NCBI RefSeq assembly: GCF_003609645.1
Contig: NZ_MCIB01000002.1
Span: 33,698-65,697 of the forward strand
From: Thermohalobacter berrensis
Lineage (GTDB): Bacteria; Bacillota; Clostridia; Tissierellales; Thermohalobacteraceae
DNA: 32,000 nucleotides
Reading direction: 5' to 3'
A model generated the notes under the pieces. It made no database searches. It was not told the origin of the DNA and was given only the letters and a program-made list of their open reading frames with translations. Of the stretch, positions 1,830 to 20,832 are shown one piece after another. Within the stretch, counting starts at the first letter, position 1. Every line of letters begins with the position of its first letter. The position numbers and the translations under genes were made by a program.

Positions 1830-2933
1830 ATGGAAGAAATAATAAATAGACTTCCTGAATTAAGTTTAGCCTATTTAGGTATTTCTATAAGACGAATAGG
1901 AATAGCAATTGGTATATTTTTTGTTTTTTTACTTTTAAGAAAAGTTGTAGTTAGATATATTTTTAAATTAGCAGCTAAGTTTACTTCAAAAACCAAATCT
2001 GAAGTAGATGATAATGTTTTAAAGGCCTTTGAGAATCCTACTAGAACCTTTATTGCAATATTTGGCTTGTATTTATCCCTTAGATATTTAAATTTAGGTA
2101 TTATATTTAATAATTTTCTAAGTAAGTTTTTTAGGTCATCAATAATTGTTTTAGTTGCATGGGGATTATATAATTTAGAGGGTACATACTCAATTATTTT
2201 TGAAAGAATGGGAGAAAAGTTTAATTTAAAAACGAATAAGATTATTAAACCCTTTTTATCAAAAATTTTAAGGTTTCTTACTATAGCATTAGCTATAGGA
2301 ATAGTTGCTCAGGAATTTGATTATGATGTAAGTGGTTTTATAGCTGGATTAGGTATTGGTGGATTAGCTATTGCAATGGCAGCAAAGGATAGTGTAGCTA
2401 ATATTTTTGGAGGAATTGTTATTATTATGGATAAGCCATTTGATATAGGCGATTGGATTTCATGTTCCAAAATTGAAGGTGTAGTAGAAGATATAAACTT
2501 TAGAAGTACAAGGATAAGGACATTTTCTAAAGCATTAATAACAGTACCTAATTCACATTTGGCCAATGAGCCTATAACTAATCATTCAAGAAGAGGAATA
2601 AGAAGAGTTGATTTTAAACTTGGAGTAACCTATAGTACTACTAGGGAAAAACTGCAAAAATGTGTAGAAAAAATAGAAAAAATGCTAATTGAACATCCAG
2701 ATGTGGATAAAGAAAAAATATTAGTTAAATTTGATGAATTTAATGATAGTAGTTTAGATATTTTGGTATATTATTTTACCAAAACAGCAGACTGGGAGGA
2801 ATATTTAAGTATAAAGCAAGATATAAACTTTAAAATAATGGATATTTTAGAAGATGAAAAAGTATCTGTAGCTTTTCCAAGTAGAAGTATATATTTTGAA
2901 AATACATTAAAATCACAAGATAAGGATGAGTGA
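1830..2933 (+). CDS. Mechanosensitive ion channel, MscS family
   Basis: N-terminal TM helices, then the conserved MscS core AAKDSVANIFGGIVIIMDKPFDIGDWI...GVVEDINFRSTRIRT. SD AAAGAGGTGA. Confidence 0.85.
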   Translation: MEEIINRLPELSLAYLGISIRRIGIAIGIFFVFLLLRKVVVRYIFKLAAKFTSKTKSEVDDNVLKAFENPTRTFIAIFGLYLSLRYLNLGIIFNNFLSKFFRSSIIVLVAWGLYNLEGTYSIIFERMGEKFNLKTNKIIKPFLSKILRFLTIALAIGIVAQEFDYDVSGFIAGLGIGGLAIAMAAKDSVANIFGGIVIIMDKPFDIGDWISCSKIEGVVEDINFRSTRIRTFSKALITVPNSHLANEPITNHSRRGIRRVDFKLGVTYSTTREKLQKCVEKIEKMLIEHPDVDKEKILVKFDEFNDSSLDILVYYFTKTADWEEYLSIKQDINFKIMDILEDEKVSVAFPSRSIYFENTLKSQDKDE

Positions 2934-3492
2934 TAAAATGAAAAGAGGTAAGAGATTTCTATTTATTGTATTTTTATTAGCTGTAGGAATTACACTTTTT
3001 ACAACAGGAATAATAAAAGTTGCAAATTCAATGGTAGCTAAAAGGGAATATACAGAAGAGGAAATAAGAGAAAAAGCACGTGAATTGGGTATGATTGATC
3101 CAAATGAATTTATAACTATTGATGAAGAAGATAATAATGATCATAATGAAAAATCCAATGATAAAGAAGTAGAAAATGAAAATAAAGATGAAGAAGAAAA
3201 TAAAGAGGAAAATGAAATTGAAAATAAGGAAATCAAAAATCAAACGGAACAAAATAAAGATATAAAAGATAAGGAAAATGAATTAATAGAAATAAAAATT
3301 AAAAAAGGTGAAAAAAGTGAGATAATAATAAATAAACTGTATGAAAGAGGTCTTATAACAAATAAAGAAGAATTTATTGCATTAGTAAGAAAAAGAGGAG
3401 ATGGGAGAAACTTTATATATGGTACCTATAAGATAAAAAAGGGAACAGATTATGAAACAATATTAGACATCTTAACTGGAAAAGACAATTAA
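2926..3492 (+). CDS. Membrane-anchored protein with an acidic low-complexity linker and a small C-terminal domain resembling the MltG/YceG N-terminal (LysM-like) module
   Basis: One N-terminal TM (FLFIVFLLAVGITLFTTGII) and an E/N/K-rich linker. The C-terminus reads IKIKKGEKSEIIINKLYERGLITNKEEF...GTYKIKKGTDYETILDILTG. It overlaps the mscS stop by 8 nt; an alternative ATG lies at 2938. Confidence 0.45.
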   Translation: MSDKMKRGKRFLFIVFLLAVGITLFTTGIIKVANSMVAKREYTEEEIREKARELGMIDPNEFITIDEEDNNDHNEKSNDKEVENENKDEEENKEENEIENKEIKNQTEQNKDIKDKENELIEIKIKKGEKSEIIINKLYERGLITNKEEFIALVRKRGDGRNFIYGTYKIKKGTDYETILDILTGKDN

Positions 3493-3682
3493 CAATTTAC
3501 AGTTGACAATTAGAAGTACAATTGAGAATGGAAAGTTGAATTTGTTAGTAGTTAGTGAAACGGGGGGACAGACCTATCATTGAACGAAGTGAAACTAAGA
3601 CCTGTCCCCGTGTTTAACGGGAGTAAAGAACGTAATAAATTTAAAATTCAAAATGTAAAATTAAAAATGAGTTAGCAAAATA

Positions 3683-3741
3683 CAGTTGTTGCTTTTGGTT
3701 TCGCTAAGAACCAAGAGCTAGCAACTAATAACTGCTTTTTT
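3683..3741. terminator. Bidirectional rho-independent terminator between convergent genes
   Basis: Nested hairpin CAGTTGTTGCT-TTGGTT...AACCAA-AGCAAC..AACTG, with CTTTTTT on the plus strand and a T-rich tail on the minus strand. Confidence 0.5.
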
Positions 3742-3779
3742 AACCGTTGTTTTTGGATTCGTAATGCCTCAACTTTTAT

Positions 3780-4424
3780 TTATAAAAAATGTACATAAAA
3801 TGAGTCTTTTGTAAGTATATCAAACCTATATCCTCTTTTTAATAATTCTTCAATAATAGTAGGTAATGCTTCAACTGTAGTAGTTTTGGGCCAACTATCA
3901 TGAAATAAAACTATATTGCCACCATCTTTTACATCTTGTAATACTGAATTAATTATAATCTCTTTATCTTGAGTAACTTTAGTTGCATCCCTTGATGATA
4001 CATTCCAGTCAAAATATTGGTAACCATCTAATAAGACCTTTGTAGTTAACCTTTCTGTTAATTTGATACCACCATACTTTTTTCCTATACTAGTATTAGA
4101 ACCACCTGGAAATCTAATAATTTTTGGTTTTACACCTGCAACGGAAAAAAGAAAATTTTCTAGTTTTTTTAAGTCCTTTAGGAAAGCTTCCTCTGAAGAA
4201 TATATTACTTTATAGTTATGACTAAAGGTATGATTTCCTATTGCATGTCCTTCATTTACAATTCTTTTATAAACTTTTTTGCCAAATTCTGTTGTATTAC
4301 CACATACAAAAAAAGTTGCCTTTACTTTATATTTCTTAAGTATATCTAAGATTTTAATAGTGTTTTTGCTAGGGCCATCATCAAAGGTTAAATATATAGT
4401 TTTTTTATCAGGGAAATTATTCAT
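3780..4424 (-). CDS. Polysaccharide deacetylase (CE4/NodB family, PdaB-like peptidoglycan deacetylase)
   Basis: NodB motifs TFDDGP, HTFSH and RFPGGS. Confidence 0.85.
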   Translation of the reverse strand: MNNFPDKKTIYLTFDDGPSKNTIKILDILKKYKVKATFFVCGNTTEFGKKVYKRIVNEGHAIGNHTFSHNYKVIYSSEEAFLKDLKKLENFLFSVAGVKPKIIRFPGGSNTSIGKKYGGIKLTERLTTKVLLDGYQYFDWNVSSRDATKVTQDKEIIINSVLQDVKDGGNIVLFHDSWPKTTTVEALPTIIEELLKRGYRFDILTKDSFYVHFL

Positions 4425-7184: not shown

Positions 7185-7212
7185 TTGACAGTAACAAAAT
7201 GGCTTGTATACT
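7185..7212 (+). promoter_or_regulatory. Sigma-A-like promoter candidate for the hsd operon
   Basis: TTGACA (7185-7190), 16-nt spacer, TATACT (7207-7212). A second candidate is the extended -10 TGATATAAT at 7233-7241. Confidence 0.45.
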
Positions 7213-7298
7213 GGAATATAATTACAAAGGTATGATATAATTTTTATAGTCAACAAAACTATTAAAGCAAGTTATTTTAATATCGGAGGGTGAATTAT

Positions 7299-8816
7299 AT
7301 GTCTAAATTAACACTACAAAAACTAGAATCAACTTTATGGAAGGCAGCAGACATACTTAGAGGAGAATTAAGTGCTGCCGAATATAAAGATTATATATTT
7401 GGTTTATTATTTTTAAAGAGGATGAATGATCAATTTGAAGTTGAAAGACAAAAGAAAAAAGAAGAATTTTTATCACAGGGTATGGCTGAAGAAGAAGTAA
7501 ATATAATTCTTGAAGAATCTTCTATATATGAGAGTTTCTTTGTTCCAAAAAGGGCAAGATGGGAAAATTTAAGAAATTTAAATCTAAATATTGGGCCTGA
7601 ATTGGACAAGGCGTTTAAAGCAATAGAAGATGAACCTAAAAATTCTGAACTTATAGGTGTACTTACGACTGCAAATTACAACGATAAGGAAAGGGTGCCA
7701 GATAAAAAGTTATCTCAACTTTTATTGTTGTTTGATAGTATAAATCTTTCAAATGATAATCTTGAAAATAAAGATGTACTTGGTAATGCATATGAATATC
7801 TAATAAAAAAATTTGCTGATGAAGGTGGTAAAAAAGGTGGAGAATTCTACACTCCAGAGGAAGTAGTTAAAGTTCTTGTAAATATCCTAAAACCACAAGA
7901 AGGAGACAGAATATATGACCCAACTGTAGGAAGTGGGGGTATGCTAATACACTCAACTCATTACATAGAAAAACATGGTGGTAACCCTAAAAATGTTTCA
8001 CTGTTCGGTCAAGAAATAAATCTTTCTACGTGGGCTATTTGTAAAATGAATATGCTTTTCCATGATGCAAGGGGAGCAGATATACAAAAGGGCGATACTA
8101 TAAGATATCCTATGCATGTAGAAGGTGGAGTATTAAAAACCTTTGATATAGTTCTTGCAAATCCACCATTTTCGTTGAAAAACTGGGGTAAAGAAGAAGC
8201 ACAGGCAGATCCATATAATAGATTCCCATATGGAGTACCACCAAAAAGTTATGGTGATATGGCATTTGTATGCCACATGATAGCAAGTTTAAACGATAAA
8301 GGAAAAATGGGTACAGTAGTTCCACATGGAGTATTATTTAGAGGTGGAGCAGAAGGAAAGATAAGAAAAGGAATATTAAAGGATGATTTAATTGAAGCAG
8401 TAATAGGACTTCCTGCAAATATATTCTATGGTACAGGAATTCCAGCAGCATTACTTATAGTAAATAAAAATAAACCAGCAGAGAGAAAAGAAAAAATACT
8501 ATTTATAGATGCAAGTAAAGGCTTCATAAAGGACGGAAACAAAAATAAACTTAGAGAAGAAGATATAGAAAAGATAACTAAGACTTTTGATGAGTTCAAA
8601 GATGTGGATAAATATGCTAGAGTAGTAAGTTTAGATGAAATAAAAGAAAATGATTATAACTTAAATATAAGTAGATATGTAGATACAACTGAACCAGAAC
8701 CAGAAATAGATATACCAGAAGTTATTAAGGAAATAAAAGAATTAAAAGAAAAGTCTAAGAAAACAGAAGATAGATTAAATGAGTATTTAAAGGAATTAGG
8801 ATTTGATGAAATTTAA
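7299..8816 (+). CDS. hsdM: Type I restriction-modification system, N6-adenine DNA methyltransferase subunit
   Basis: AdoMet motif [10 protein letters not shown], catalytic NPPF ([11 protein letters not shown]), HsdM N-terminal helical domain. SD GGAGGG 8 nt before ATG 7299 (the ORF opens at GTG 7290). Confidence 0.95.
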
Positions 8817-8924
8817 AATAAGTATGTAAATAAGTTTTAAGAAACAGATGATGAATTAGAAATTTGTATTAGGTTAAATGATTGGTATTAAAAAACAAAA
8901 ATAATAAGGGGAATACAAGGTAAC

Positions 8925-9185
8925 ATGGATAATGTTCTTACAAATGAATTATTTTATAAATCTCTGTTAAAAGTTTTTGTTGAGATATTTAAAATGGCAT
9001 GGCAATTGGATGTTTTTAAGTCAGCAATTATAGGTATTCCTGTGTCTATAGTTACATATAGAATTGTTGGTTTCGTTTTTTCATGGGGTAGATATAATGG
9101 CATTTGGTTTGGAAGAGTAGGAGGAAAATTAATATATTATTGTATAAACTCGATTCTAATATGGTTAATTATGAAAGTGGTATAA
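8925..9185 (+). CDS. Hypothetical small membrane protein (86 aa) between hsdM and hsdS
   Basis: Two or three hydrophobic helices (SAIIGIPVSIVTYRIVGFVF; LIYYCINSILIWLIM). It is co-directional and ends 6 nt before the hsdS ORF opens. I recognise no family. Confidence 0.45.
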   Translation: MDNVLTNELFYKSLLKVFVEIFKMAWQLDVFKSAIIGIPVSIVTYRIVGFVFSWGRYNGIWFGRVGGKLIYYCINSILIWLIMKVV

Positions 9186-9200
9186 AGAGAGGTGAAGCAG

Positions 9201-10475
9201 TTGGGAACAATTAACAATGAACAATTAATAAATAATAATCAAAATAAATATAAAAAGACAGAAATAGGAGAGATACCGAAGGAGTGGGAGGTTAAGGAAA
9301 TAGGTGAAATAGGTTCAACTTATAATGGGTTATCTGGAAAAAACAAAGATGATTTTGGTAGAGGAAAGCCATTTATACCATATAAAAATATATTTGATAA
9401 TTCAAAAATAGATATTAATTATTTAGATTATGTTGTTATTAAAGACGATGAAAATCAGAATAAAGTTAAGTACGGTGATATATTTTTTACAACGTCATCT
9501 GAAACACCAGAGGAAGTAGGTATGAGTTCTGTTATTTTAGATGAAATAGATGAATTATATTTGAATAGTTTTTGTTTTGGATTTAGATTAAATGATTTTA
9601 GTATATTGTTACCTGAATTTGCAAGATACTTATTTAGAGGAGGCAAAATAAGAAAAATAGTCTCAAGATTGGCACAAGGCTCTACAAGATTCAATTTATC
9701 AAAAACTCAGTTTATGAAGATAAGTATCCCTATTCCCCCACTTAAAGAACAACAAAAAATAGCATCTATTCTTTCAACAGTGGATGAACAAATTGAACAA
9801 ACAGATGTATTAATCGAAAAAACTAAGGAACTTAAAAAAGGACTTATGCAAAAACTTCTGACTAAAGGTATTGGGCATACAGAATTTAAGAAGACGGAAA
9901 TAGGAGAGATACCGAAGGAGTGGGAGGTAATACCCCTATTTGATACAGGAGAATATATAAACGGAAAAGCATTTAAACCTTCTGAATGGAGAGATGAAGG
10001 TATTCCTATAATAAGAATTCAAAATTTAAATGATAAAAATGCAACATATAACTACTATAATCTAGAAGTAGATAAAAAATATCATGTAAATAAAGGTGAT
10101 TTATTATTCGCATGGTCAGGTTCTATAGGATTGCATATATGGAAAGAAGAGAAAGCATATCTAAATCAACATATTTATAAAGTTATTCCAAGCGAAAATG
10201 TAGATAAAAAATATTTATATTATCAATTATCTAGACAAATTGAAATTTTGCTTGAATTATCACATGGATCAACAATGAAACATATAACAAGAAAAAATTT
10301 AAAATTGGTAAAAATACCATTACCCTCACCTAAAGAACAACAAAAAATAGCCACTATTCTTTCAGAAGTAGATAACCAAATAGAGGAGTATGAAATAAAA
10401 AAAGAAAAACTTCAAAACCTTAAAAAAGGACTTATGCAACAATTATTAACAGGTAAAAAAAGGGTGAAAGTATAG
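9201..10475 (+). CDS. hsdS: Type I restriction-modification system, specificity subunit
   Basis: Two TRDs, each opened by TEIGEIPKEWEV and closed by conserved helices (PPLKEQQKIASILSTVDEQIEQ...KKGLMQKLLT and PSPKEQQKIATILSEVDNQIEE...KKGLMQQLLT). The ORF opens at GTG 9192; the TTG at 9201 has better SD spacing. Confidence 0.95.
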   Translation: MGTINNEQLINNNQNKYKKTEIGEIPKEWEVKEIGEIGSTYNGLSGKNKDDFGRGKPFIPYKNIFDNSKIDINYLDYVVIKDDENQNKVKYGDIFFTTSSETPEEVGMSSVILDEIDELYLNSFCFGFRLNDFSILLPEFARYLFRGGKIRKIVSRLAQGSTRFNLSKTQFMKISIPIPPLKEQQKIASILSTVDEQIEQTDVLIEKTKELKKGLMQKLLTKGIGHTEFKKTEIGEIPKEWEVIPLFDTGEYINGKAFKPSEWRDEGIPIIRIQNLNDKNATYNYYNLEVDKKYHVNKGDLLFAWSGSIGLHIWKEEKAYLNQHIYKVIPSENVDKKYLYYQLSRQIEILLELSHGSTMKHITRKNLKLVKIPLPSPKEQQKIATILSEVDNQIEEYEIKKEKLQNLKKGLMQQLLTGKKRVKV

Positions 10476-11305
10476 TGAGATATGCTTTGGCTTTTCGAGA
10501 TGCTAATTTCACAGAAACTCTAAAGTATATTGATGAAATTTCCAATAGATTTGTAAATGAAATAAAGAAGGTTAGTTACGTTTCAGGAGATGAAGAAATT
10601 CAGGAATTATTATCTGAACAAAGTTTAAATCAATTTTTAGCCATTACTTATTCATTAAATATCCCGATAAATGAGGCTAAGTTAAAGGATCCTAATTTTG
10701 AAGACCTTGGTGAATTGTTTGGATTTAATGATACATTAGAAAATAAAGCAAGACTTATGCAAATGTGGATTTCGTTGGGGTCTGCTCTTGAATCATTATT
10801 ACAAATATTTCTGGGAATCTATTTAAGGGATTATGAAAATTCAGGATGGGGAAAATGGGAGAATTTTAAACTCCAAGAAACTAAAGAGAATCTATTAAGA
10901 ACATTAAATGAGTTAAGAGAGAAAGAAATTATAAGTCAGAAACAAAAGAACACATTTAAGAAAGATATTAAGAACTATTTAAAAGATAAACAACAGACTA
11001 AACATTTAGCAGAGTTAATTTTAGGAAGTTTGATTAATTTTTATTATTCAAATAACTTGTGGCCAGATGATGATGCAGATAGGATAAAAGCAAAAATGGA
11101 TTTTATTAGAGAAAATAGAAACTGTGTACATTCATTTAAGGAGAGATATGTAGGAACTTGGGAAGAATTACTTGATTCTTTAAAGTTTTTTACCCAGATT
11201 ATGTTAGAACTTTTATCACGATTACCTGATGTAGATGAAATTCTCCAATATGAGATAGAACTAAAGTCTGAAATTGAGAGTTATTATAATGATTACTGGT
11301 ATTAA
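10475..11305 (+). CDS. Hypothetical all-helical protein (276 aa) between hsdS and hsdR; weak HEPN-like R-x6-H motif
   Basis: The GTG start shares one nt with the hsdS TAG stop (TAGTG), and AGGGTG lies about 8 nt upstream. Motif FIRENRNCVHSF sits near the C-terminus. I recognise no family. Confidence 0.55.
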   Translation: MRYALAFRDANFTETLKYIDEISNRFVNEIKKVSYVSGDEEIQELLSEQSLNQFLAITYSLNIPINEAKLKDPNFEDLGELFGFNDTLENKARLMQMWISLGSALESLLQIFLGIYLRDYENSGWGKWENFKLQETKENLLRTLNELREKEIISQKQKNTFKKDIKNYLKDKQQTKHLAELILGSLINFYYSNNLWPDDDADRIKAKMDFIRENRNCVHSFKERYVGTWEELLDSLKFFTQIMLELLSRLPDVDEILQYEIELKSEIESYYNDYWY

Positions 11306-11355
11306 AGATAGTTAAATAGTTTAAACTAGTGATATCAAAAGTAGGGGGGGGTAAC

Positions 11356-14300
11356 ATGTCTTATCTAGGGAATGAGGAAACCCTTGTTGAAATACCAGCA
11401 ATTGAATACCTACGGGATAAATTAGATTATCAATTTGTCCATGGACAGTTTTTAACCCCTGAATATGGTGAAAGAGATTCAATGACAGAGGTTATATTAA
11501 AGAAAAGGCTAGAAAAGGCACTCAAAAGACTTAATCCATGGATGAATGATACTAATATAAACAAGGCTATAAGATATCTTACTAGACCAGAAAATTTAGG
11601 GGTTAATTTGTATGACATAAATGAGAAAATATATGACGCTATTGTAAATTTATCTTACTCATTAGAACAAGACTTAGATGGTAGTGGTAAAAAGAAATAT
11701 TACACAATTAAGTTTATTGACTGGCATAATATAGATAATAATGAATTTTTAGTTACTAGACAATTTAAAGTACATGGACCAAATGAAAATATAATACCTG
11801 ATATAGTTATATTTATTAACGGGATACCTGTAGTAGTTTTAGAGTGTAAATCACCATTTCTTGAAAAGAGTAAAAACGAAAATATGGGAAAATATGAAGC
11901 CTTTAATCAACTCCAAAGATACATGAATGCAAGAGGTGGAAATATAGTAGAAGGTGCAGAAAGACTCTTTTATACAAACTTTATTACAGGTATATTAAAT
12001 AAATATCATGGTTACATAGGTACTATAAGTTCTACATATCAATTTTATCAGGAATGGAAAGACCCTTATCCTTTTAAAATAAAGGATATAGATGGAGTAG
12101 AGGATAATGGACAAAATATATTTTTACATGGCGTACTTGAAAAAGAGAATCTTGTAGATATAATGCAAAATTTTATATTATTTGAAAGTGGAGTTAAAAA
12201 GGTTTGTAGATATCAGCAATTTAGAGCAGTAAATAAGGCTTTAAAAAGACTTATTAAAGGTAAGGATTCAATAAGTCGTGGGGGAGTTATATGGCATACC
12301 CAAGGTTCGGGCAAATCGTTAACAATGGTATTTTTAGCAAGAAAAATAAGAAAAATTAAGGAACTTATGGATGCTACTATAGTTGTGGTAACTGATAGAA
12401 TAGACTTAGATAAACAAATTTACAACACTTTTGTAAGAACATTATCTAATATTACTACACCAGTTAGGGCAGATAGTGTGGCTTCATTAAAGGAATTACT
12501 ATCCCTTGCACAACCACAAATTATAATGACTACAATTCATAAGTTCCAAGGAGAAAAGGAAGATAAGGAAGTATTAAAGGATTCAAAACAAAAGAAAGGA
12601 TTGTATTTTGAAAAAGAGTTTCCGGTTTTAACTACAAAGTCAAATGTTATAGTACTTGCTGATGAAGCCCATAGAAGTCAATACAAGACAATGGCAAAAA
12701 ATATGAGGAATGCACTGCCAAATGCTGCTTTTATAGGATTTACAGGAACACCTATAGATAAAAAGGATAAATCCACAGTCAGAACATTTGGTAAATATAT
12801 AGATAAATATGGCATAAAACAAGCAGTAGAAGATGGAGCAACAGTAAAAATAGTATATGAAGGTAGAAAACCAGAACTTCAAATTAAAGGAGACACATTA
12901 GAGGAATTATTTGACGAAGCCTTCGGAGATAGAAGTGATGAAGAGAAGGAAGCAATAAAGCAAAAGTATGCTAACAAAAGGACAATAGTTGAGGCAGACG
13001 AAAGAATAGAAGATATAGCCAAGGATATTCTTACCCATTATAAAGAGCAGATTTATCCTAACGGATTTAAGGCACAGGTAGTGTGCGTATCAAGGGATGC
13101 GTGTGTAAAATACTATAACGCATTAAATAAATATATGGGAAAAATTATAGGAGAAAAATTAGAAGTAAAAATTATATTTTCAGGTAGTCCTAATGATGAG
13201 CCATATTTAAAAGAACACCACACTACAAAAGCAGAACAGGATGAAATAATAAAAAGATTTAAGCAACCAATAGATAAGGATAAACTCTGTTTTATTATTG
13301 TAAAGGATATGCTTCTTACGGGATTTGATGCACCAATTGAGCAAGTAATGTATTTAGATAGACCACTGAAAGAACATAATTTACTACAAGCAATTGCAAG
13401 GGTAAATAGAACATATGGAGATAGTAAGAAGTGTGGTTATGTAGTAGATTATTATGGTATATCTAATCATCTAGAAGAAGCATTAGCAATATTTGATAAA
13501 GAAGAACTAGGACAGCCAATGGAATCCTTAGATTCAATATATAATCAGATGCTTTCTTATAGAGAAGCAGTCATGAATATGTTTAGAGGTGTAGACAAAG
13601 ATGATTTAGACAGCCTAGTTAGAAAAATAGAGCCTGAAGATAAAAGGGCAGAATTTGAACTTGCGTACAAAAGATTTGCAAGTACAATGGAACAATTATT
13701 ACCTTCACGGGTTCCAACTAATATGATAAATGATCTGAGATGGCTTACATATATAAGAGCAGCTGCAAAGGCCAGATTTGAACCACAAAACAAATTAGAT
13801 ATAGCAGGGTGTGGAGGAAAGGTTAAAAAAATAATATCAGAACATCTAAAATCTAAAGGTGTAGAGCAATGGATTGAGCCTATTACATTGTTTGATTCAA
13901 ATTTTAATATAAAAATAAACAAATTAGAATCAGATGAAGCAGTAGCATCAAGCATGGAACATGCTATAAAACATGTAATAAATGTTAGAATGGATGAAAA
14001 CCCTGTTCATTATACTTCGTTGCTAGAAAAACTCAAAAAGATATTAGATGAAACCAAGAATAACTGGATAGAGAGAAAAAATAAGTTAAAAGAATTTATA
14101 GAAAATGACATCCAAAAAGGAGAAATAGAGGAAGCAGAGGCATTAGGACTTACAAAGGAAGAATATGCTTTCTTTCAAACAGTTAAAAAACATCTTAAAG
14201 ATGATAGTGATAATACAAATATAGTAAAAGAAGAAGGAGAAGATTATATATCAAATGAGATAATAGAATTATCGAAAAGTATTGCTAAGGATGTAAGCGA

Positions 14301-14484
14301 AATAGTAAAAGAAAATTATGTTATAGATTGGACAACAAATCCATCAAAGACCTCTGATATAGAAAGGGAAATTTATTTAACCCTTACAAAAAAATATTTT
14401 AAAAAGTTAAAGTTAGAGATAAGAAAACAGTTAGTACAGCCACTTCTTAATTTGGCCAAAAAACATTATGCAGTATTAGATTAA
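11356..14484 (+). CDS. hsdR: Type I restriction enzyme, restriction/translocase subunit
   Basis: N-terminal PD-(D/E)xK (IPDIVIFINGIPVVVLECK). SF2 motifs HTQGSGKSLTMV, VLADEAHRSQ, FTGTP and QAIARVNR. Long helical C-terminus. The G-rich SD precedes ATG 11356 (the ORF opens at 11329). Confidence 0.95.
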   Translation: MSYLGNEETLVEIPAIEYLRDKLDYQFVHGQFLTPEYGERDSMTEVILKKRLEKALKRLNPWMNDTNINKAIRYLTRPENLGVNLYDINEKIYDAIVNLSYSLEQDLDGSGKKKYYTIKFIDWHNIDNNEFLVTRQFKVHGPNENIIPDIVIFINGIPVVVLECKSPFLEKSKNENMGKYEAFNQLQRYMNARGGNIVEGAERLFYTNFITGILNKYHGYIGTISSTYQFYQEWKDPYPFKIKDIDGVEDNGQNIFLHGVLEKENLVDIMQNFILFESGVKKVCRYQQFRAVNKALKRLIKGKDSISRGGVIWHTQGSGKSLTMVFLARKIRKIKELMDATIVVVTDRIDLDKQIYNTFVRTLSNITTPVRADSVASLKELLSLAQPQIIMTTIHKFQGEKEDKEVLKDSKQKKGLYFEKEFPVLTTKSNVIVLADEAHRSQYKTMAKNMRNALPNAAFIGFTGTPIDKKDKSTVRTFGKYIDKYGIKQAVEDGATVKIVYEGRKPELQIKGDTLEELFDEAFGDRSDEEKEAIKQKYANKRTIVEADERIEDIAKDILTHYKEQIYPNGFKAQVVCVSRDACVKYYNALNKYMGKIIGEKLEVKIIFSGSPNDEPYLKEHHTTKAEQDEIIKRFKQPIDKDKLCFIIVKDMLLTGFDAPIEQVMYLDRPLKEHNLLQAIARVNRTYGDSKKCGYVVDYYGISNHLEEALAIFDKEELGQPMESLDSIYNQMLSYREAVMNMFRGVDKDDLDSLVRKIEPEDKRAEFELAYKRFASTMEQLLPSRVPTNMINDLRWLTYIRAAAKARFEPQNKLDIAGCGGKVKKIISEHLKSKGVEQWIEPITLFDSNFNIKINKLESDEAVASSMEHAIKHVINVRMDENPVHYTSLLEKLKKILDETKNNWIERKNKLKEFIENDIQKGEIEEAEALGLTKEEYAFFQTVKKHLKDDSDNTNIVKEEGEDYISNEIIELSKSIAKDVSEIVKENYVIDWTTNPSKTSDIEREIYLTLTKKYFKKLKLEIRKQLVQPLLNLAKKHYAVLD

Positions 14485-14496
14485 GGATGATACGAG

Positions 14497-15210
14497 ATGA
14501 AACTATCATTTAACTTTGGAACAAGAAATATAGAATTTGATGTAGAATATAGAAACAGAAAGACTATAGAAATAAGCATGGAGCCACCGGATACAATAAA
14601 CGTAGTGGCTCCTATTAATACTCCAGAGGATGTAATAATTAAAAAAGTAAAAAGCAGAGGCTCTTGGATAGTTCAAAAACTATTTGAATTTAAGAATATG
14701 GAATATAGAAAAATCAAAAGAGAATTTGTTAATGGAGAATCATTTATGTACTTGGGACGAAATTATTCTCTTCAGATAATAGATGATTTAAATATAAAAA
14801 GACCTGAAGTTAAACTATATCAAGGCAAATTTTATATAAAATCAAATACTAGACAAGAAGATATACTACAGGCTGCAATGGAAAATTGGTATAGGAAAAA
14901 GGCGTTAGAAAAGATAACTGAAAGGGTAAAGTATTATCAGCACTATTTTAAAGAAAAACCTTTAGATATAAAGGTAAAAGAGCAGCAGAAAAGATGGGCA
15001 AGTTGTACATCAAAGAATGAATTATTATTTAATTGGAGATGTGTAATGGCTCCATCTCATGTACTCGACTATATAGTAGTTCATGAAATGTGTCATATGG
15101 TTTATAAAAACCATTCAAAGGAATTTTGGGATTTAGTAGCATCAATAATGCCTGATTATCAAACTAGAAAAGAATGGCTTAGAGATTATGGGGTAAGGAT
15201 GGATTTGTAA
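14497..15210 (+). CDS. DUF45/YgjP-like (COG1451, annotated M48-like) zinc metallopeptidase
   Basis: HExxH in VVHEMCHMVYKNHSKEFW, the family-typical context. It starts 12 nt after hsdR, with SD AAGGATGA. Confidence 0.8.
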   Translation: MKLSFNFGTRNIEFDVEYRNRKTIEISMEPPDTINVVAPINTPEDVIIKKVKSRGSWIVQKLFEFKNMEYRKIKREFVNGESFMYLGRNYSLQIIDDLNIKRPEVKLYQGKFYIKSNTRQEDILQAAMENWYRKKALEKITERVKYYQHYFKEKPLDIKVKEQQKRWASCTSKNELLFNWRCVMAPSHVLDYIVVHEMCHMVYKNHSKEFWDLVASIMPDYQTRKEWLRDYGVRMDL

Positions 15211-15228: not shown

Positions 15229-16695
15229 ATGGAAGATAACTCAAGAGTTCCAAGAGTGTTTATATCTTATAGTTGGTCATCGCAAGACCATGAAAACTGG
15301 GTGTTGGAATTGGCTGAAAGACTAGTAAACGATGGGATAGATGTTATACTTGATAAATGGAATTTAAAAGAAGGACAAGATAAATATGTATTTATGGAGA
15401 AATCTATAAAAAGAGAAGATGTAGATAAAATCTTAGTAATTTGTGACAAAGTATATCAAGAAAAAGCAGATGAAAGAAAAGGTGGAGTAGGGACGGAATC
15501 TCAAATAATATCAAAAGAAGTGTATGAAGATACTGGTCAAGAAAAATTTATACCTATTATAAAAGAATTTGATGAAAATGGACAACCCTTTCTGCCTACT
15601 TTTTTCAGTACAAGAATTTACTTAGATTTTTCAGATCACTATAAATATGAGGAGAGTTATGAAAAATTAGTAAGAAGTTTATATGGGAAGCCCATGTATA
15701 AAAAACCCAAACTGGGTTCTCCTCCACCATATATTTTAGAAGATGAAGTTGATAACTCTAAAACTAAATACTATGTAAAACAGATTGAAAATGCAATATT
15801 GAATAATAAGAAATTCACAAAGGGGTTAATTGTTGATTTTTTAGATAAAATCATTGAATCTCTCGATGAATATAGAATCTATATTGATAATACATCAAAT
15901 ATTAATGAATTTGATGAACTAGTAATAGATAATATAAATAAATTAATACCGTTAAGAAACGATTTTATCAAAGTAGTAGATATAATTTTTAAATATAAAG
16001 AACATATTGATCTCAATAAGTTTCATAGGTTTTGGGAAGAAATAATAAAATATCAATATAAAACACCAGATATGAGTTCGTATTATCAATTCCAATTTGA
16101 TAATTTTAAGTTTTTTATATATGAATTATTTCTGTATTTTATAACTATATTATTAAAATTAGAAAAGTATGAAGAAGCATCTTTTTTCATTAATGCTACA
16201 TATTTTTATAAAATTAACAATTATGGAGAATTAGTTAACGGCAATATATCAGAATTCAATAATTATGTAGAATCACTTGAACAAATAAGGCAAAATAGAT
16301 TAAAGTTAAATAGAATATCTATAACAGCAGATTTAATAAAAGAAAGGGCTAATATTCACAATATAAAATTCAGAGATATTGTTGAAACAGACTATTTATT
16401 ATTTTTTATAACGATAAATAATAGTAAAGATAGTATAAGGCAAGATATATGGGTTCCTAGATGTAGTGTTTATAATAGTTATCATAGAAAACCTTTAATA
16501 TTTGAGAAGATGATTTCTGCTAGACACTTTGAAAAAGTTAAAATACTATTTAAAGTTAATACACCTGAAGAATTTAAAAATATGATATTAAAAACTACGG
16601 ATTTAGGTATAGATAAAGACTATTATAAATCATTTTATCGTATTATTTCTATAAATAAAGTAGTTGATATAGAAAAATTAGCAACTTTAGATTAA
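15229..16695 (+). CDS. TIR/SEFIR-like domain protein with an uncharacterised ~320-aa C-terminal domain
   Basis: N-terminus PRVFISYSWSSQDHENWVLELAERLVNDGIDVILDKWNL..G.....M...I...DKILVICDKVY...GGVGTESQII matches the SEFIR/TIR beta-alpha pattern. The remainder is helical, with one hydrophobic stretch (FFIYELFLYFITILL). SD AAGGGGGA. Confidence 0.65.
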   Translation: MEDNSRVPRVFISYSWSSQDHENWVLELAERLVNDGIDVILDKWNLKEGQDKYVFMEKSIKREDVDKILVICDKVYQEKADERKGGVGTESQIISKEVYEDTGQEKFIPIIKEFDENGQPFLPTFFSTRIYLDFSDHYKYEESYEKLVRSLYGKPMYKKPKLGSPPPYILEDEVDNSKTKYYVKQIENAILNNKKFTKGLIVDFLDKIIESLDEYRIYIDNTSNINEFDELVIDNINKLIPLRNDFIKVVDIIFKYKEHIDLNKFHRFWEEIIKYQYKTPDMSSYYQFQFDNFKFFIYELFLYFITILLKLEKYEEASFFINATYFYKINNYGELVNGNISEFNNYVESLEQIRQNRLKLNRISITADLIKERANIHNIKFRDIVETDYLLFFITINNSKDSIRQDIWVPRCSVYNSYHRKPLIFEKMISARHFEKVKILFKVNTPEEFKNMILKTTDLGIDKDYYKSFYRIISINKVVDIEKLATLD

Positions 16696-16725: not shown

Positions 16726-17448
16726 TTAGAAAGGGAATATCTTTAGCACGGATATTCCCTTCGGTATTTTTCTATTTTTCAAATATTCTTGTATAGCATT
16801 TCTGCAATCTGGGTTTATTGGAACTTTTCTATACTTGCCATGCTTACCGTAAATTAATAAATAAGAACCTCTTTCACGAAGTACTATATTATCAATTTTC
16901 AAAGAAATTACTTCACTAACTCTAAGATCATGTCTTAATAGTTTAATTATCAAAATATGATGCTTATAACCACTCCTGTAAATTTCCCTTTTTAGTTTCC
17001 GAAATGTCTTTTCATCTATCCATTTAGGTTGTGAAGGATTTTCAATTTTAATTTTTTAAAGATTCTTTGATACATCTTTTTTTATATAATTATAAGAATA
17101 AAGAAAAGAAAAGTAGTTTTTTAGGCTCATAATCTTTAAATTTACTGTATTTGCTTTTGCATTTTTAATATTGATTAGATAGGACCTAAAATCGCGGAGG
17201 TCTATTGTTGTAATTATTTGGGGTTGAAAGGAATCTGTATTAGATTTATTAAACCACTTTATAAAATTAACAATATTGTCTATATAAGTATTTATAGTTA
17301 ATTCTGTTTTATCTAGATTTTCTAGATATCCTTTAAACTCATTTAAATAATAACAATCCTTATTGATATATAAATCCCTTTTTTCATCTTTAACATACCT
17401 CCAAAATATTTTTTTAGAAGTATATAAATTTTTGATATTCAGTTTCAA
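16726..17448 (-). pseudogene. Tyrosine recombinase (XerC/D-like phage integrase) pseudogene: in-frame TAA plus loss of the C-terminal catalytic half
   Basis: ORFs 17056..17448 (SAM-like N-terminal domain) and 16726..16953 (LLRHDLRVSEV...GKHGKYRKVPIN) share one frame. Only the TAA at 17056-17058 separates them. The H-x-x-R and catalytic Tyr regions are missing. Confidence 0.8.
16731..16771 (+). terminator. Rho-independent terminator ending the hsd/TIR operon
   Basis: Hairpin AAGGGAATATC / GATATTCCCTT followed by CGGTATTTTT. It lies inside the last codons of the antisense integrase fragment. Confidence 0.65.
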
Positions 17449-17522
17449 GAAAAATTTAGTTTTTTGTATATAAAAATTAATAAAATTATGGCCTAAAAAG
17501 TTTTGTTTCCAATTTTTTAGCC

Positions 17523-17564
17523 TTATTTGTTAATGCATAAATTTTACAATTAGAATATTACTGC
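17523..17564. repeat. Degenerate att-like remnant next to the integrase
   Basis: Ungapped 32/42 match to 6984-7025 of the 154-bp repeat, including two exact 11-mers (TTATTTGTTAA and AATTAGAATAT) on the same diagonal. Confidence 0.55.
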
Positions 17565-17713
17565 TTTTGAAAAAGAGTAATTTTTGGTTGAAACATAAAA
17601 TTGAAAAAAGAATTCTAGTTATGTTTAAAAGTTATATGGAAAATCAAGGAAAAGTATTTTATAATAAAAGTGTAAAAGTTTGTATTATATATTTCAATAA
17701 CAGAGGGTATCGA

Positions 17714-19776
17714 ATGTTCGTTTCGAAATTATACATAAAAAACTTTAGAAGTATTAAGAAATTAAAAATTTCATTTAGATCAGGTAAAAACGTATTGGTT
17801 GTAAAGAATAATGCAGGAAAAAGTAATATAGTTAAAGCATTAAATTTGGTTTTAGGTGAAAAAAATCCTGTATATTCAAGGCAAATAAATGAAAAAGATT
17901 TTTTTTCATGTTCAAAAGATGGACAAGTAGTAAGTGAGAAGGCATTTTTTGTTGCAGCAAAATTACAAGGAAAAGATATAAATAAAACAATATTTCAAAA
18001 TGTTAATGGATTATGGTTGGCAACTTTTAAAAATTCAAATCCGTTAGAATCTTTTTTTGAAGGTAATAACTCAAAGAGTTACGAAATTCTCATGGGAAAT
18101 TTTCAGAATATTAAGAACAGAGAGTATTATAAGGATAAGAATCAGTTGTTTAATATGTTTAATAATGCAGATGAACTATACATTTATTTTTGTGCAGTTA
18201 AAGATGATGAGCAAAAGCGTAATATGGATTATTATCAAAAAAATATTCAATAACTTACAGTATATTATTAAAACATGATAACAACTATTATAGATGTTCA
18301 AAATTTCCAAATGACTTAAGGAATTCTTTAATAACAAGTGCAATTCTACCGGCTTTTAGAGATGCAAATAATCAATTGAGAATTAGTGATTGGAGGTTGT
18401 ATGGGAAACTAATTAAACATATATGGGAAAATTCGGATTTTAACAAGAAAGCAGTTATAGAGAAAAAACTTGATGAAATTAAACAAATAACTGATGACAT
18501 TTTTGATGATGCTATTATGGATATTCAACAAAAGATTAGAGAAGCAATATACTTTAGTAATATTTCATTCCAATTATTAGAAAATACTAAAGATGATATA
18601 TATAAAGGGATAGAAGTTTTTATTGACGATGGAATTTTAGGATTATTAAAGGATAAAGGAACTGGTATACAAAGTGCTTTTATAATATCATTATTTTCAT
18701 ATTATTGTAGTAAGTTTCATAAAAATTCGTCACTACTTGTAGTAGAAGAACCAGAAATTTATCTACATCCTCAAGCAAGAAGAGTATTATCGTATAAGTT
18801 TGATGAGTTTGTTAACCTTAATCATATTAACGGCAACCAAGTTATAATAACGACTCATTCAAGTGAATTCATTAGAAATACTAACTTAGAAAATATTATT
18901 CTTGTAAAAAAAGTTAACGGAAGAACTACAACTAAGAGTATTACATTGCATTCTGAAAAAATAAGGATTTAATAAAATTCAAAATATAATATCTACAAAA
19001 AATGCAGAAATATTTTTTGCTGAAAAAGTTATTTTAGTAGAAGGTGGAGAAGAATATATTGTACCATTAATTGTAGATGAATATTTTGGAAAGTCTGGTT
19101 ATTTAGATAATAATAATATTACAGTAGCAAAAGTTGGAGGTAAATATTTTTTTAAACCTTATTTGCAATTAATATCTGCCTTAGGAATTGAATATTATGT
19201 TATTGCTGATTTTGATATGCTTTATGAAGGATTAGAACATTTAAGAGAATTTATTAATTGTGTTACTTATTTAGACATTAATGAAATAAAAAGTGAATTA
19301 TTTAAAATTGTTACACCTGATAATCAATGGAAAGAAAGCAAAAAAATAAAGAAACAATTAAAAAAGTATAATGCAAAAGAATTTTGCAATCTAGTAGAAA
19401 AGATATGTGATACTAAAGAGTATGATGAACAATTATGTGAGATATGGTCAGATATTAAACCTAGATTTAAGAAGAAAATAGATTATGAAACTTTAAAGCA
19501 ACGTAAAAACTTACAAAAAAAATATATAATTTTATTGACAAATTAAAAGAAGATAATATTTATATTATGAAAAAAGGAGAATTAGAGGATTATATAACGT
19601 CTTATGGCTGGCAAGTAATAAAAGAATTTGGATTTTCAGATCAAAAAGAGTTGAGAATAATGAAGTTAGCAGAAATGATAAGTAGAGGGGATATTAAATT
19701 AGAAGATGTTATGGACGTACAAGAGTATTTAGAAGTGATTAAGAAAATAAAAGTTTTATTAAATAATAATATTTAA
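17714..19776 (+). pseudogene. OLD-family ATP-dependent endonuclease (ABC-type ATPase plus Toprim), disrupted by three frameshifts
   Basis: N-terminus YIKNFRSI...NNAGKSNIVKALNLVLG, signature GTGIQS, Walker B LLVVEEPEIYLHP, H-loop ITTHS, Toprim ILVEGGEE and VIADFD. The reading frame changes at the A7 run 18237-18243, within GGATTT 18965-18970, and at the A8 run 19515-19522. Confidence 0.8.
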
Positions 19777-19878
19777 ATATAAGTAAGAGATTATATATAT
19801 TGTCTTATAAATACTTAAATTCATAATAAACTTAAGCAGAAATATAATTAAATACATATATTACAAGGGGGAGTTTTT

Positions 19879-20832
19879 ATGATTTATAACTTTAGGATTG
19901 ACAGAAGTTGTAGAGAAGATATTATTAACAGAATTAAAACTGAAAAAACATTATCCCAAGGCTGGGGAGGTGGAGATTATAATCTAAGTTTGGAAGATGA
20001 AGATTTTGTCAATAGGTGTTATGAACACTATAAGTTGAATAGTACTAGAATACCTACTAACTTAACTAGAATTAGAGAATTTAAAGATAATGATATTATT
20101 GTAGTACCTCATTTGCCAGAAGATAGAAAAGTAACTTTCTTAATAGTTGATGAAGATTATCCTAACTGCTATGAATATGTTAAAAATGATAAAACCCATC
20201 AAAATCACAGAATTAAAATAAAAGAAGTATATGGATTAGAGGGAAATGTTGAGATATATAATGAGAAATTAGTAAATTGGTATGGTAAATTACAGTGGAT
20301 GAGACTACCTATACTGCCAATAGATAAGTTTAGTAAAGATATTAATGAGATTATAGATAATTTAAGAAAAAATCCAAGTTTAAAATTTAAAATGACAGAG
20401 TTAGATGAATATCTATTAAACAAAAAAGATGAGTTAGTTAATAAATTAAAAGAGGACTTACGAAAGATAAATGCAAGTAATAGTGCTTTATCTTTTGAAA
20501 AAATTTGTGAAAAAATAATAAAAGATAATGGGTATGAGATTAAAAGAAGAAACGTATATGACAAAACAGGTGGAGACATAGACCTAGAGTGTATAAGAAA
20601 TAGAAATGATATTTCACCTTTTGAGAGTGGAGAAGTCAAATTGTTTGTTCAGATTAAGAAACATAAAGGTGAAACTGATGAATATGCGGTAAAACAAGTT
20701 TCTAAATTTATGGATAAAAATCCAGAGGCTGATGGATGTGTTATGACACTAGCAGATAAATTTTCTGATAATGCAATTAAAGAGGCAAATGAAAAAAAAT
20801 ATTTCATTATTAAATGGAAAAGAAGTATGTGA
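19879..20832 (+). CDS. Mrr-like PD-(D/E)xK restriction endonuclease with an unknown N-terminal domain; C-terminus altered by an A8-tract frameshift
   Basis: C-terminal half FEKICEKIIKDNGYEI...GGDIDLEC...LFVQIKKHKG resembles the Mrr catalytic core. One fewer A in 20792-20799 would read ...EKNISLLNGKEVCELLLRSMIQIDG and stop at 20869. Confidence 0.65.
   Translation: MIYNFRIDRSCREDIINRIKTEKTLSQGWGGGDYNLSLEDEDFVNRCYEHYKLNSTRIPTNLTRIREFKDNDIIVVPHLPEDRKVTFLIVDEDYPNCYEYVKNDKTHQNHRIKIKEVYGLEGNVEIYNEKLVNWYGKLQWMRLPILPIDKFSKDINEIIDNLRKNPSLKFKMTELDEYLLNKKDELVNKLKEDLRKINASNSALSFEKICEKIIKDNGYEIKRRNVYDKTGGDIDLECIRNRNDISPFESGEVKLFVQIKKHKGETDEYAVKQVSKFMDKNPEADGCVMTLADKFSDNAIKEANEKKYFIIKWKRSM

Follow-up and report, generated by a model that had tools for sequence, protein, structure and literature searches.

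We analysed a 32,000-nucleotide stretch of Thermohalobacter berrensis DNA (contig NZ_MCIB01000002.1, positions 33,698 to 65,697; the window, below) in which a Type I restriction-modification (R-M) operon carries, between hsdS and hsdR, a gene for a 276-amino-acid protein that we call X (10475-11305, plus strand). X belongs to a family that has repeatedly settled directly after a DNA-methylation or specificity gene, in defence loci and on the host side, and its core is probably HEPN-like. The explanation that we favour, at roughly even chances, is that X is a latent, metal-independent HEPN-like endoribonuclease, which would act as a self-contained abortive-infection or second-line effector within the Type I operon, in the slot of PrrC and without an ATPase domain.

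The X gene and its family

As the preliminary description had stated, the GTG codon of X (10475-10477) shares the G at 10475 with the TAG stop of hsdS (10473-10475). The NCBI annotation (protein P0001 in our collection) begins X at a TTG four codons downstream, at 10487, which gives 272 amino acids. Close homologues all begin with MRY, MRI or MRV at the position aligned to the GTG, and a Shine-Dalgarno-like sequence read from the DNA, AAGGGTGA (10460-10467), lies within the 3' end of hsdS, 7 nucleotides before it. Because of the conserved MRY N-terminus and the position of the Shine-Dalgarno, GTG 10475 is the better start. Start and stop overlap in four of six syntenic loci, as TAGTG or TAATG in three and as ATGA in one, and gaps of 22 nucleotides (locus L007) and 46 nucleotides (L009) separate the genes in the remaining two; the overlap is therefore common but not obligatory. 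The stoichiometric synthesis of X with HsdS that had been drawn from the overlap goes further than the overlap itself, which these two syntenic loci lack.

Judged by comparison of its copies, X is a real gene under strong purifying selection and not a chance open reading frame. Homologues exist at 41-80% identity. The ratio of nonsynonymous to synonymous substitution rates (dN/dS) is 0.048 for the copies of Mobilitalea and Alkalithermobacter, a pair that is unsaturated at synonymous sites, and 0.05-0.07 in comparisons with the X of the window.

In Pfam and NCBIfam, nothing that X matched reached the curated cutoffs, and PADLOC, PHROGs and the sequences of the Protein Data Bank (PDB) gave no meaningful match. 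At E <= 1, the one PADLOC match of X was spurious, and no family recurred when 106 members were compared with that library. Among 5.8 billion proteins, a word-indexed search picked up just three further clusters, at 50-79% identity. When a profile was run exhaustively against 1.84 billion cluster representatives, 243 of them (50%-identity clusters) matched at E <= 1e-3 and 67 at E <= 1e-10, and a metagenome scan with patterns of the short subfamily added 353 further relatives. The family occurs in Bacillota, Planctomycetota, Pseudomonadota and many metagenomes, where its members are annotated 'hypothetical protein'. No relatives of X were found among 50,697 phage records or the 2.9 million viral contigs of IMG/VR, and the gene is therefore placed on the host side; a phage origin or an anti-defence role was rejected on the same result.

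Two subfamilies can be told apart by length. The long one, of about 245-300 amino acids, includes X, and the short one, of about 190-215 amino acids, matches the profile in two stretches (query residues ~76-125 and ~170-255), with residues ~125-170 missing. In an alignment of 106 diverse members (A3), whose mean identity to X is ~20-30%, E106 is kept in all 106 and R215, N216 and H219 each in 104; G102 and L113 are also at least 90% conserved. The family signature is W-x2-L-G-[SA]-x2-E-x2-L-[QK]-x-F-L-x-[VI]-Y-x2-D-Y ... [IV]-x3-R-N-x-[IV]-H-x-[FY]-x2-R-x-I-G ... R-L-P. Its first part contains E106 (codon 10790-10792), which in X stands in LGSxxExxLQ and so forms Ex3Q; the residue four positions after E106 is Q in 60 members of A3, K in 33 and R in 4, and Ex3K is at least 90% conserved in the sampled short subfamily. 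The second part is the family-wide RNxxH motif, R215-N216-C-V-H219 in X (codons 11117-11131), in which the spacer from R to H is always three residues, without length variation (104 of 106 members).

The C-terminal motif singled out in the preliminary description is this conserved core. The segment FIRENRNCVHSF (X residues 210-221) holds both R212-x6-H219 and R215-N-x-x-H219, and both spacings had been pointed out. RN-xx-H, with its invariant spacer, is the conserved motif; R-x6-H depends on R212, which varies between R, Q and K across the family. An E/R/N/H constellation that stays invariant at ~20% identity argues for catalysis.

Relation to HEPN domains

An AlphaFold2 model of X built from a 106-sequence alignment is all-helical, with a predicted local distance difference test (pLDDT) score of 94.5 and a predicted template-modelling (pTM) score of 0.91; it superseded a first model from 4 sequences (pLDDT 70.8), for which Foldseek had returned generic helical-bundle matches. 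A scan for [AG]xxxxGK[ST] found no Walker A motif or P-loop in X, and there is no AAA or ABC match in Pfam, so that the earlier picture of a small, all-helical protein lacking a P-loop is borne out by the scan and the model. The helices of the model span residues 12-37, 48-71, 88-115 (with E106), 117-123, 133-149, 155-171, 183-192, 198-218, 229-248 and 254-274. Helix 198-218 ends in R215-N216-C-V, and H219 is the first residue of the loop that follows. Between the helix of E106 and that of the RN..H motif lies a variable helical insert (117-192), which short members do not have. The idea that the insert mimics an HsdS coiled coil was rejected, as a PADLOC match to Specificity_I (6.7e-5, residues 109-179, in the K/E-rich insert) recurs in only 2 of the 106 members; BLASTP of X against the HsdS of the window found nothing.

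HEPN domains have been described as up-down bundles of four helices, in which a loop, a helix or a helical hairpin is often inserted between the second helix and the third (Anantharaman et al. 2013, PMC3710099). Their defining motif is Rx4-6H, with N, D or H as the usual residue behind the R; in addition, helix 2 carries a conserved acidic residue, typically within Ex3[KR] (PMC3710099). Much of X fits this description. In the secondary structure of the model, R-N stands at the end of helix 198-218, H219 starts a loop and helix 229-248 follows, as expected for the location of the HEPN motif. E106, in helix 88-115 and within Ex3[K/Q], corresponds to the acidic residue of helix 2. The order of the helices fits too, as does the variable 117-192 insert that is missing in short members.

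Weak sequence matches point the same way. Below the Pfam thresholds, 150 short members gave NTase_sub_bind four times (the most recurrent), HEPN_MAE_28990 twice and HEPN_RiboL-PSP once, and 107 other members gave HEPN_MAE_28990 and DUF3644 once each; DUF3644 overlaps the EC042_2821 family of HEPN domains (PMC3710099). Since very few of the 24,736 Pfam models belong to the HEPN clan, its recurrence is unlikely to be noise. Three short members bear the names 'MAE-28990/MAE-18760-like HEPN' or 'Apea-like HEPN' in UniRef; a direct Pfam scan of these three found nothing.

We also restored the canonical spacer by placing one alanine before the histidine, which yields Rx4H, and compared eight modified sequences with Pfam. 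A HEPN-clan model was the top match in five of the eight and in none of the unmodified versions; the sequence is, however, altered, the test has no negative control and all scores lie below the Pfam gathering cutoffs. The modified consensus of the short subfamily matched HEPN_MAE_28990 at 2.1e-4 (22.0 bits, against a cutoff of 26.8, in two stretches), HEPN_RiboL-PSP at 6e-3 (residues 94-187 on profile positions 100-188 of 191) and HEPN_Apea at 0.18, and that of the whole family matched HEPN_Apea at 0.018. Modified X matched DUF4145 at 3e-4 (21.2 bits, against a cutoff of 23.1). HEPN_MAE_28990 was also reached by the modified members P0174 (6.6e-4) and P0236 (0.17), and native P0203, P0236 and P0174 have no Pfam match at E <= 1. 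Modified P0100 and P0163 gave no match, and an extra residue after N216 instead gave RiboL-PSP at 0.68 only. On HEPN kinship, this result is suggestive only.

A number of points weigh against the explanation that we favour, the limits of the test just described among them. The spacer of the X family is three residues, outside Rx4-6H, although the polar N after the R is present, and the caution with which the preliminary description had treated its HEPN assignment was justified. No HEPN model of Pfam was reached by native X or by the consensus of the whole family, of the short or of the long subfamily. Profile hidden Markov models of two family alignments (A3 and A7) found nothing relevant among PDB sequences. 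When the pLDDT-94.5 model was searched with Foldseek against 350,542 PDB chains and BFVD, nothing was found at E <= 0.001, so that the structural comparison with HEPN and nuclease folds proposed at the outset gave no significant match; the best HEPN protein was Csm6 (6tug_H), at E=0.42 and a template-modelling (TM) score of 0.27, and the top matches were generic helical bundles with TM ~0.3. An hhalign comparison of the X family with 32 DUF4145 domains (homologues of the N-terminus of an HsdR in locus L107, many of them labelled PF13643) gave a probability below 1%. Two further points concern the function. No recurring partner or antitoxin family was found among the neighbours within two genes in 78 metagenomic loci and the other fetched loci, and a toxic RNase without an antitoxin would require putative self-inhibition.

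Some HsdR proteins carry a fused HEPN domain, DUF4145 (PF13643), at their N-terminus, and the position of X directly upstream of hsdR recalls a split version of that arrangement. The DUF4145 motif is R-x2-G-N-x3-H, as against R-x2-R-N-x2-H in X, and short local hhalign pairings, non-significant, align LGxxxE with LGGFAEQ and IRxxRN with LRIHGN. A split-off DUF4145 domain of HsdR was rejected as the identity of X, the hhalign result being non-significant, and is kept as an analogy only.

Genomic settings and the host operon

Close relatives (at least 41% identity) were collected from a contig look-up and a scan of 185,579 species genomes, and the open reading frames around them were compared with the proteins of the window. 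Ten close loci were obtained: six of Type I, two with a methylase beside a DUF6079 gene, one Gabija-like and one in another defence island. The order hsdM-(orf86)-hsdS-X-hsdR-ygjP is found in six, namely the window, Mobilitalea sibirica, Alkalithermobacter paradoxus, L002, L007 and L009. Identity to the window copy in the other five is 79, 79, 54, 45 and 43% for X and 87, 86, 77, 74 and 74% for HsdM; because HsdM is 74-87% identical, the six syntenic loci are taken as one Type I lineage. L002 has an extra 338-amino-acid gene without a Pfam match (8897-9913) between X and hsdR, and the hsdS-hsdR gap therefore takes further cargo.

In L011, X lies 14 nucleotides after an 837-amino-acid N6_N4 methylase (1853-4366), itself after a DUF6079 protein. 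In L008 (7253-7996) only the last 223 codons of a methylase that is 76% identical to the L011 gene are left directly before X; here X was retained while its neighbouring methylase decayed. L003/L004 place X beside a GajA/GajB-like (Gabija-type) pair, an OLD-like TOPRIM/AAA ATPase and a UvrD-type helicase, in Tn7-like cargo, and L010 is an island with an SF1 helicase-DUF2726 protein, ABC-3C components and a KAP NTPase.

Among the distant relatives solo genes prevail, in varied surroundings. One, P0163 (~22% identical, 20 contigs), lies 2 nucleotides after hsdS in an operon of another type, hsdR-hsdM-hsdS-X, whose HsdR has an EcoEI_R_C domain and a faint DUF4145 label; its N-terminal homologues are labelled PF13643. 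Another, P0100 (13 contigs of one Phycisphaerales lineage), lies 22 nucleotides after rtcB in an RtcR-RtcB-X...RtcA operon. The Rtc system repairs 2',3'-cyclic-phosphate RNA ends, and the rtcB-linked member is possibly one half of a pairing of nuclease and repair. The operon of this member (L017/L018/L019, 5001-5603) also holds a HEAT-repeat protein and a small N6-adenine methylase. Among the 78 metagenomic loci, rtcA was seen five genes away in one. P0236 is a solo gene between pnp and rpsO, P0174 stands in a prophage-like region, and copies of the short kind, annotated 'hypothetical protein', are present on four plasmids, which are conjugative or mobilizable; the plasmid search gave no match for X itself. 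As the relatives occupy many settings without hsd genes, X is no obligate subunit of R-M systems but a portable module. The linkage to Type I loci for which the preliminary description had suggested a survey thus holds for six of the ten close loci and one distant lineage, and other relatives lie elsewhere. A place for X in a type II toxin-antitoxin pair was rejected, no conserved adjacent partner gene having been found within two genes in the metagenomic and other fetched loci.

Some of these loci have further features. The island of L107 (3779-20593) holds an HsdR with a faint DUF4145 label (N-terminal homologues labelled PF13643), hsdM, hsdS and an X-family gene in one operon, then three genes of no assigned family (351, 202 and 193 amino acids, the first two also in L023), an AAA_15/AAA_21 ATPase, a 308-amino-acid protein and an SNF2 helicase; an integrase and a sigma-54 activator flank it. 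A DUF1643 gene is next to or near short members in two unrelated replicons, L012 (8010-8558, Pontivivens chromosome) and L104 (5663-6040, a Massilia plasmid), which may be coincidence.

In the window, the operon runs along the plus strand. The best sigma-70-like promoter match, TTGACA-16-TATACT (11/12; 7185-7212), lies upstream of hsdM and is a candidate operon promoter, as a consensus match only, such sites being no commoner in the region than in shuffled sequence. It is followed by the methyltransferase subunit gene hsdM (7290-8816; N6_Mtase 1.5e-113, HsdM_N 6e-28), by orf86 (8925-9185, 86 codons), a small hydrophobic open reading frame, and by the specificity subunit gene hsdS (9192-10475; Methylase_S 5e-54, in two stretches). 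After X comes the restriction/translocase subunit gene hsdR (11329-14484; SWI2_SNF2 1.5e-83, HSDR_N 5.4e-36, T1RH-like_C), for which ATG 11356, with a G-rich Shine-Dalgarno before it, is a more likely start than the GTG at 11329 that opens the reading frame. X has the same orientation as hsdM, hsdS and hsdR, and no terminator-like site was seen between hsdS and hsdR.

None of Pfam, NCBIfam, PADLOC and PHROGs gave a family match for the product of orf86. At 52-56% identity, copies hold the same place in L001/L005, L006 and L009 and are not present in L002 or L007. By its strong hydrophobicity, it is probably a small membrane protein, which is unusual within a Type I operon.

Downstream of hsdR, a gene for a YgjP-like (WLM/M48-type) metallopeptidase (14497-15210; 1.2e-60) stands directly 3' of hsdR in all six syntenic loci, at 58-70% identity, and has the look of a fifth component fixed in this Type I lineage. 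A bSEFIR/TIR-type defence gene (15229-16695; SEFIR 1.4e-21, TIR_2 3e-18, PADLOC bSEFIR 5.3e-109) starts 18 nucleotides after ygjP and is the last gene on the strand before the terminator; because Mobilitalea (L001) has an integrase after ygjP in its place, bSEFIR seems to have joined the transcription unit later. An intrinsic-terminator-like hairpin with a 12 bp stem (16731-16761) and a T-run follows (16731-16771). From hsdM to this hairpin, no comparably strong terminator-like site was found; there is one weak 5-bp stem inside hsdR.

Past 17056 the island looks decayed (17056-20832), and housekeeping genes begin again with metH at 21831. Of a phage integrase, the minus-strand open reading frame at 17056-17448 (130 amino acids) has just the SAM-like domain of the N-terminus. 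Two reading frames, 17567-18253 and 18376-18972, hold the parts of a split AAA_15/AAA_21 (OLD/GajA-like) ATPase (profile positions 1-155 and 218-374), and an Mrr_cat nuclease gene (19879-20832) comes after them. No RNA family of Rfam was found in the window.

Function, rival explanations and significance

If X acts as we favour, E106, R215, N216 and H219 would form an RNase site that leaves 2',3'-cyclic phosphate ends and to which both subunits of a homodimer would probably contribute, as they do in other HEPN enzymes. X would stay silent until infection or perturbation of the R-M complex and, once active, would cut tRNA, mRNA or rRNA, so that translation stops. Silencing is proposed to be largely intrinsic because relatives are solo genes without a conserved partner; the N-terminal helices (1-87) and the 117-192 insert are the candidate elements, and contact with HsdM/HsdS may add an optional layer. 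RNA as the target is argued for by the placement of the motif and by the rtcB case. That all ten close loci are defence-related would support an effector, and the second hsdS-adjacent lineage, ~22% identical and with a different gene order and HsdR type, would likewise count for the reading that we favour. Whether X is an active RNase working in this way we consider evenly balanced. A more specific form, in which X, as a minimal analogue of PrrC that lacks the ATPase domain, has a previously unrecognised Rx3H version of the HEPN site, is translationally coupled to HsdS, is silenced on HsdM2S and is released by phage anti-restriction attack (and likewise on PglX-like methylases in the two DUF6079 loci), seems doubtful to us.

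X might instead be an effector of a different all-helical fold that carries an E...RN..H-like motif and works by other chemistry, for instance on DNA or nucleotides or through the binding of a signal. We hold this to be unlikely, but it is the rival that we take most seriously: no HEPN protein matches X significantly by structure or profile, the three-residue spacer lies outside the range that defines HEPN, the best Foldseek matches are generic bundles of TM ~0.3, and a defence-island setting suits an effector of any type. However, E106 and RN..H stand in the model, point for point, where the description of the HEPN active site puts them, the HEPN clan is the only theme that recurs in the weak Pfam matches and comes to the top once the spacer is lengthened by one residue, and the rtcB neighbourhood points to RNA ends.

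The overlap with the hsdS stop in four of six loci, together with a Shine-Dalgarno inside hsdS, could also mean that X serves the Type I enzyme as an accessory or regulatory subunit without catalysis of its own. It would be co-produced with HsdS and would tune assembly, restriction alleviation or specificity, with no role as a toxin. The identities of X fall in step with those of HsdM, in line with co-divergence of X and the operon, a distant relative also lies directly after hsdS, no antitoxin is present and the motif spacing is non-canonical, as in degenerate HEPN domains. Yet four invariant polar or charged residues at ~20% identity are typical of an active site, most relatives are solo and far from hsd genes (pnp/rpsO, plasmids, rtcB, Gabija-like genes), and X has no similarity to HsdS; we regard a subunit of this kind as quite improbable. 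Least probable is a helper in RNA processing or repair that trims or recognises damaged RNA ends and for which the defence setting is secondary. In one lineage the gene does lie between rtcB and rtcA, with RtcR in control, in another rtcA is five genes distant, and one solo copy sits between pnp and rpsO, but the rtc link is confined to two lineages, with rtcA near only one of 78 metagenomic loci. All ten close relatives, moreover, stand among restriction or other defence genes, and the patchy, mobile distribution of the family (plasmids, integrase-flanked islands, Tn7-like cargo) is that of a conflict gene and not of a housekeeping one.

In the Escherichia coli prr locus (EcoprrI, Type Ic), the PrrC gene lies between hsdS and hsdR, and X shares this slot, as had been recognised from the window alone: hsdM-hsdS-X-hsdR is found there and in five other distinct loci. 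PrrC is embedded in its Type I locus and masked by EcoprrI (PMC3710099). It has a C-terminal HEPN-type RNase site with an essential R and H and provides a latent second line of defence, unmasked when a phage attacks the R-M enzyme. PrrC and RloC also have an N-terminal ABC/Rad50-like nucleoside triphosphatase (NTPase) domain, which regulates PrrC; X, in contrast, is all helical, has 276 amino acids and lacks a P-loop. Nor is there detectable sequence similarity between X and PrrC (PADLOC, E <= 1); the spacer of X is Rx3H, and members of its family also occur solo.

In functional terms, X is best compared with solo HEPN genes of the 'Abi type'. Abi2/AbiD/AbiF, AbiJ without its N-terminal domains, AbiU2 and ApeA are small, mostly helical RN...H proteins of R-M operons and defence islands, with no dedicated antitoxin (PMC3710099). 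X and its relatives differ from them in having no significant match to their Pfam or PADLOC models and a spacer one residue shorter, and X in having a helical-hairpin insert and additional N-terminal and C-terminal helices. By sequence, the nearest models are HEPN_MAE_28990 (PF18737), HEPN_RiboL-PSP (PF18735) and HEPN_Apea (PF18739), whose matches after spacer restoration extend over 70-90 residues, all below their gathering cutoffs.

HEPN RNases embedded in R-M operons have been predicted (Anantharaman et al. 2013, PMC3710099), and HEPN genes in such operons are a recurring theme and a kind already known. New here is a widespread family that is absent from Pfam, NCBIfam, PADLOC and PHROGs and that fails the canonical spacer rule. 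To our knowledge, among the HEPN RNases lodged in R-M systems, only those of the PrrC/RloC type, with their large ATPase sensor, are understood. If X is an RNase, the HEPN active site tolerates a three-residue spacer and current motif and model searches miss such members; X would then also be a very small, single-gene system in which to study how an R-M-embedded suicide nuclease with neither NTPase domain nor antitoxin is kept silent. If X is no RNase, the family would be an undescribed helical effector with a fixed E/R/N/H site, found repeatedly just after DNA-methylation modules. Should X prove to be a minimal PrrC analogue, the 'methylase-guarded RNase' would be a portable module of general occurrence, and the catalytic motif of HEPN enzymes would have to be defined more broadly.

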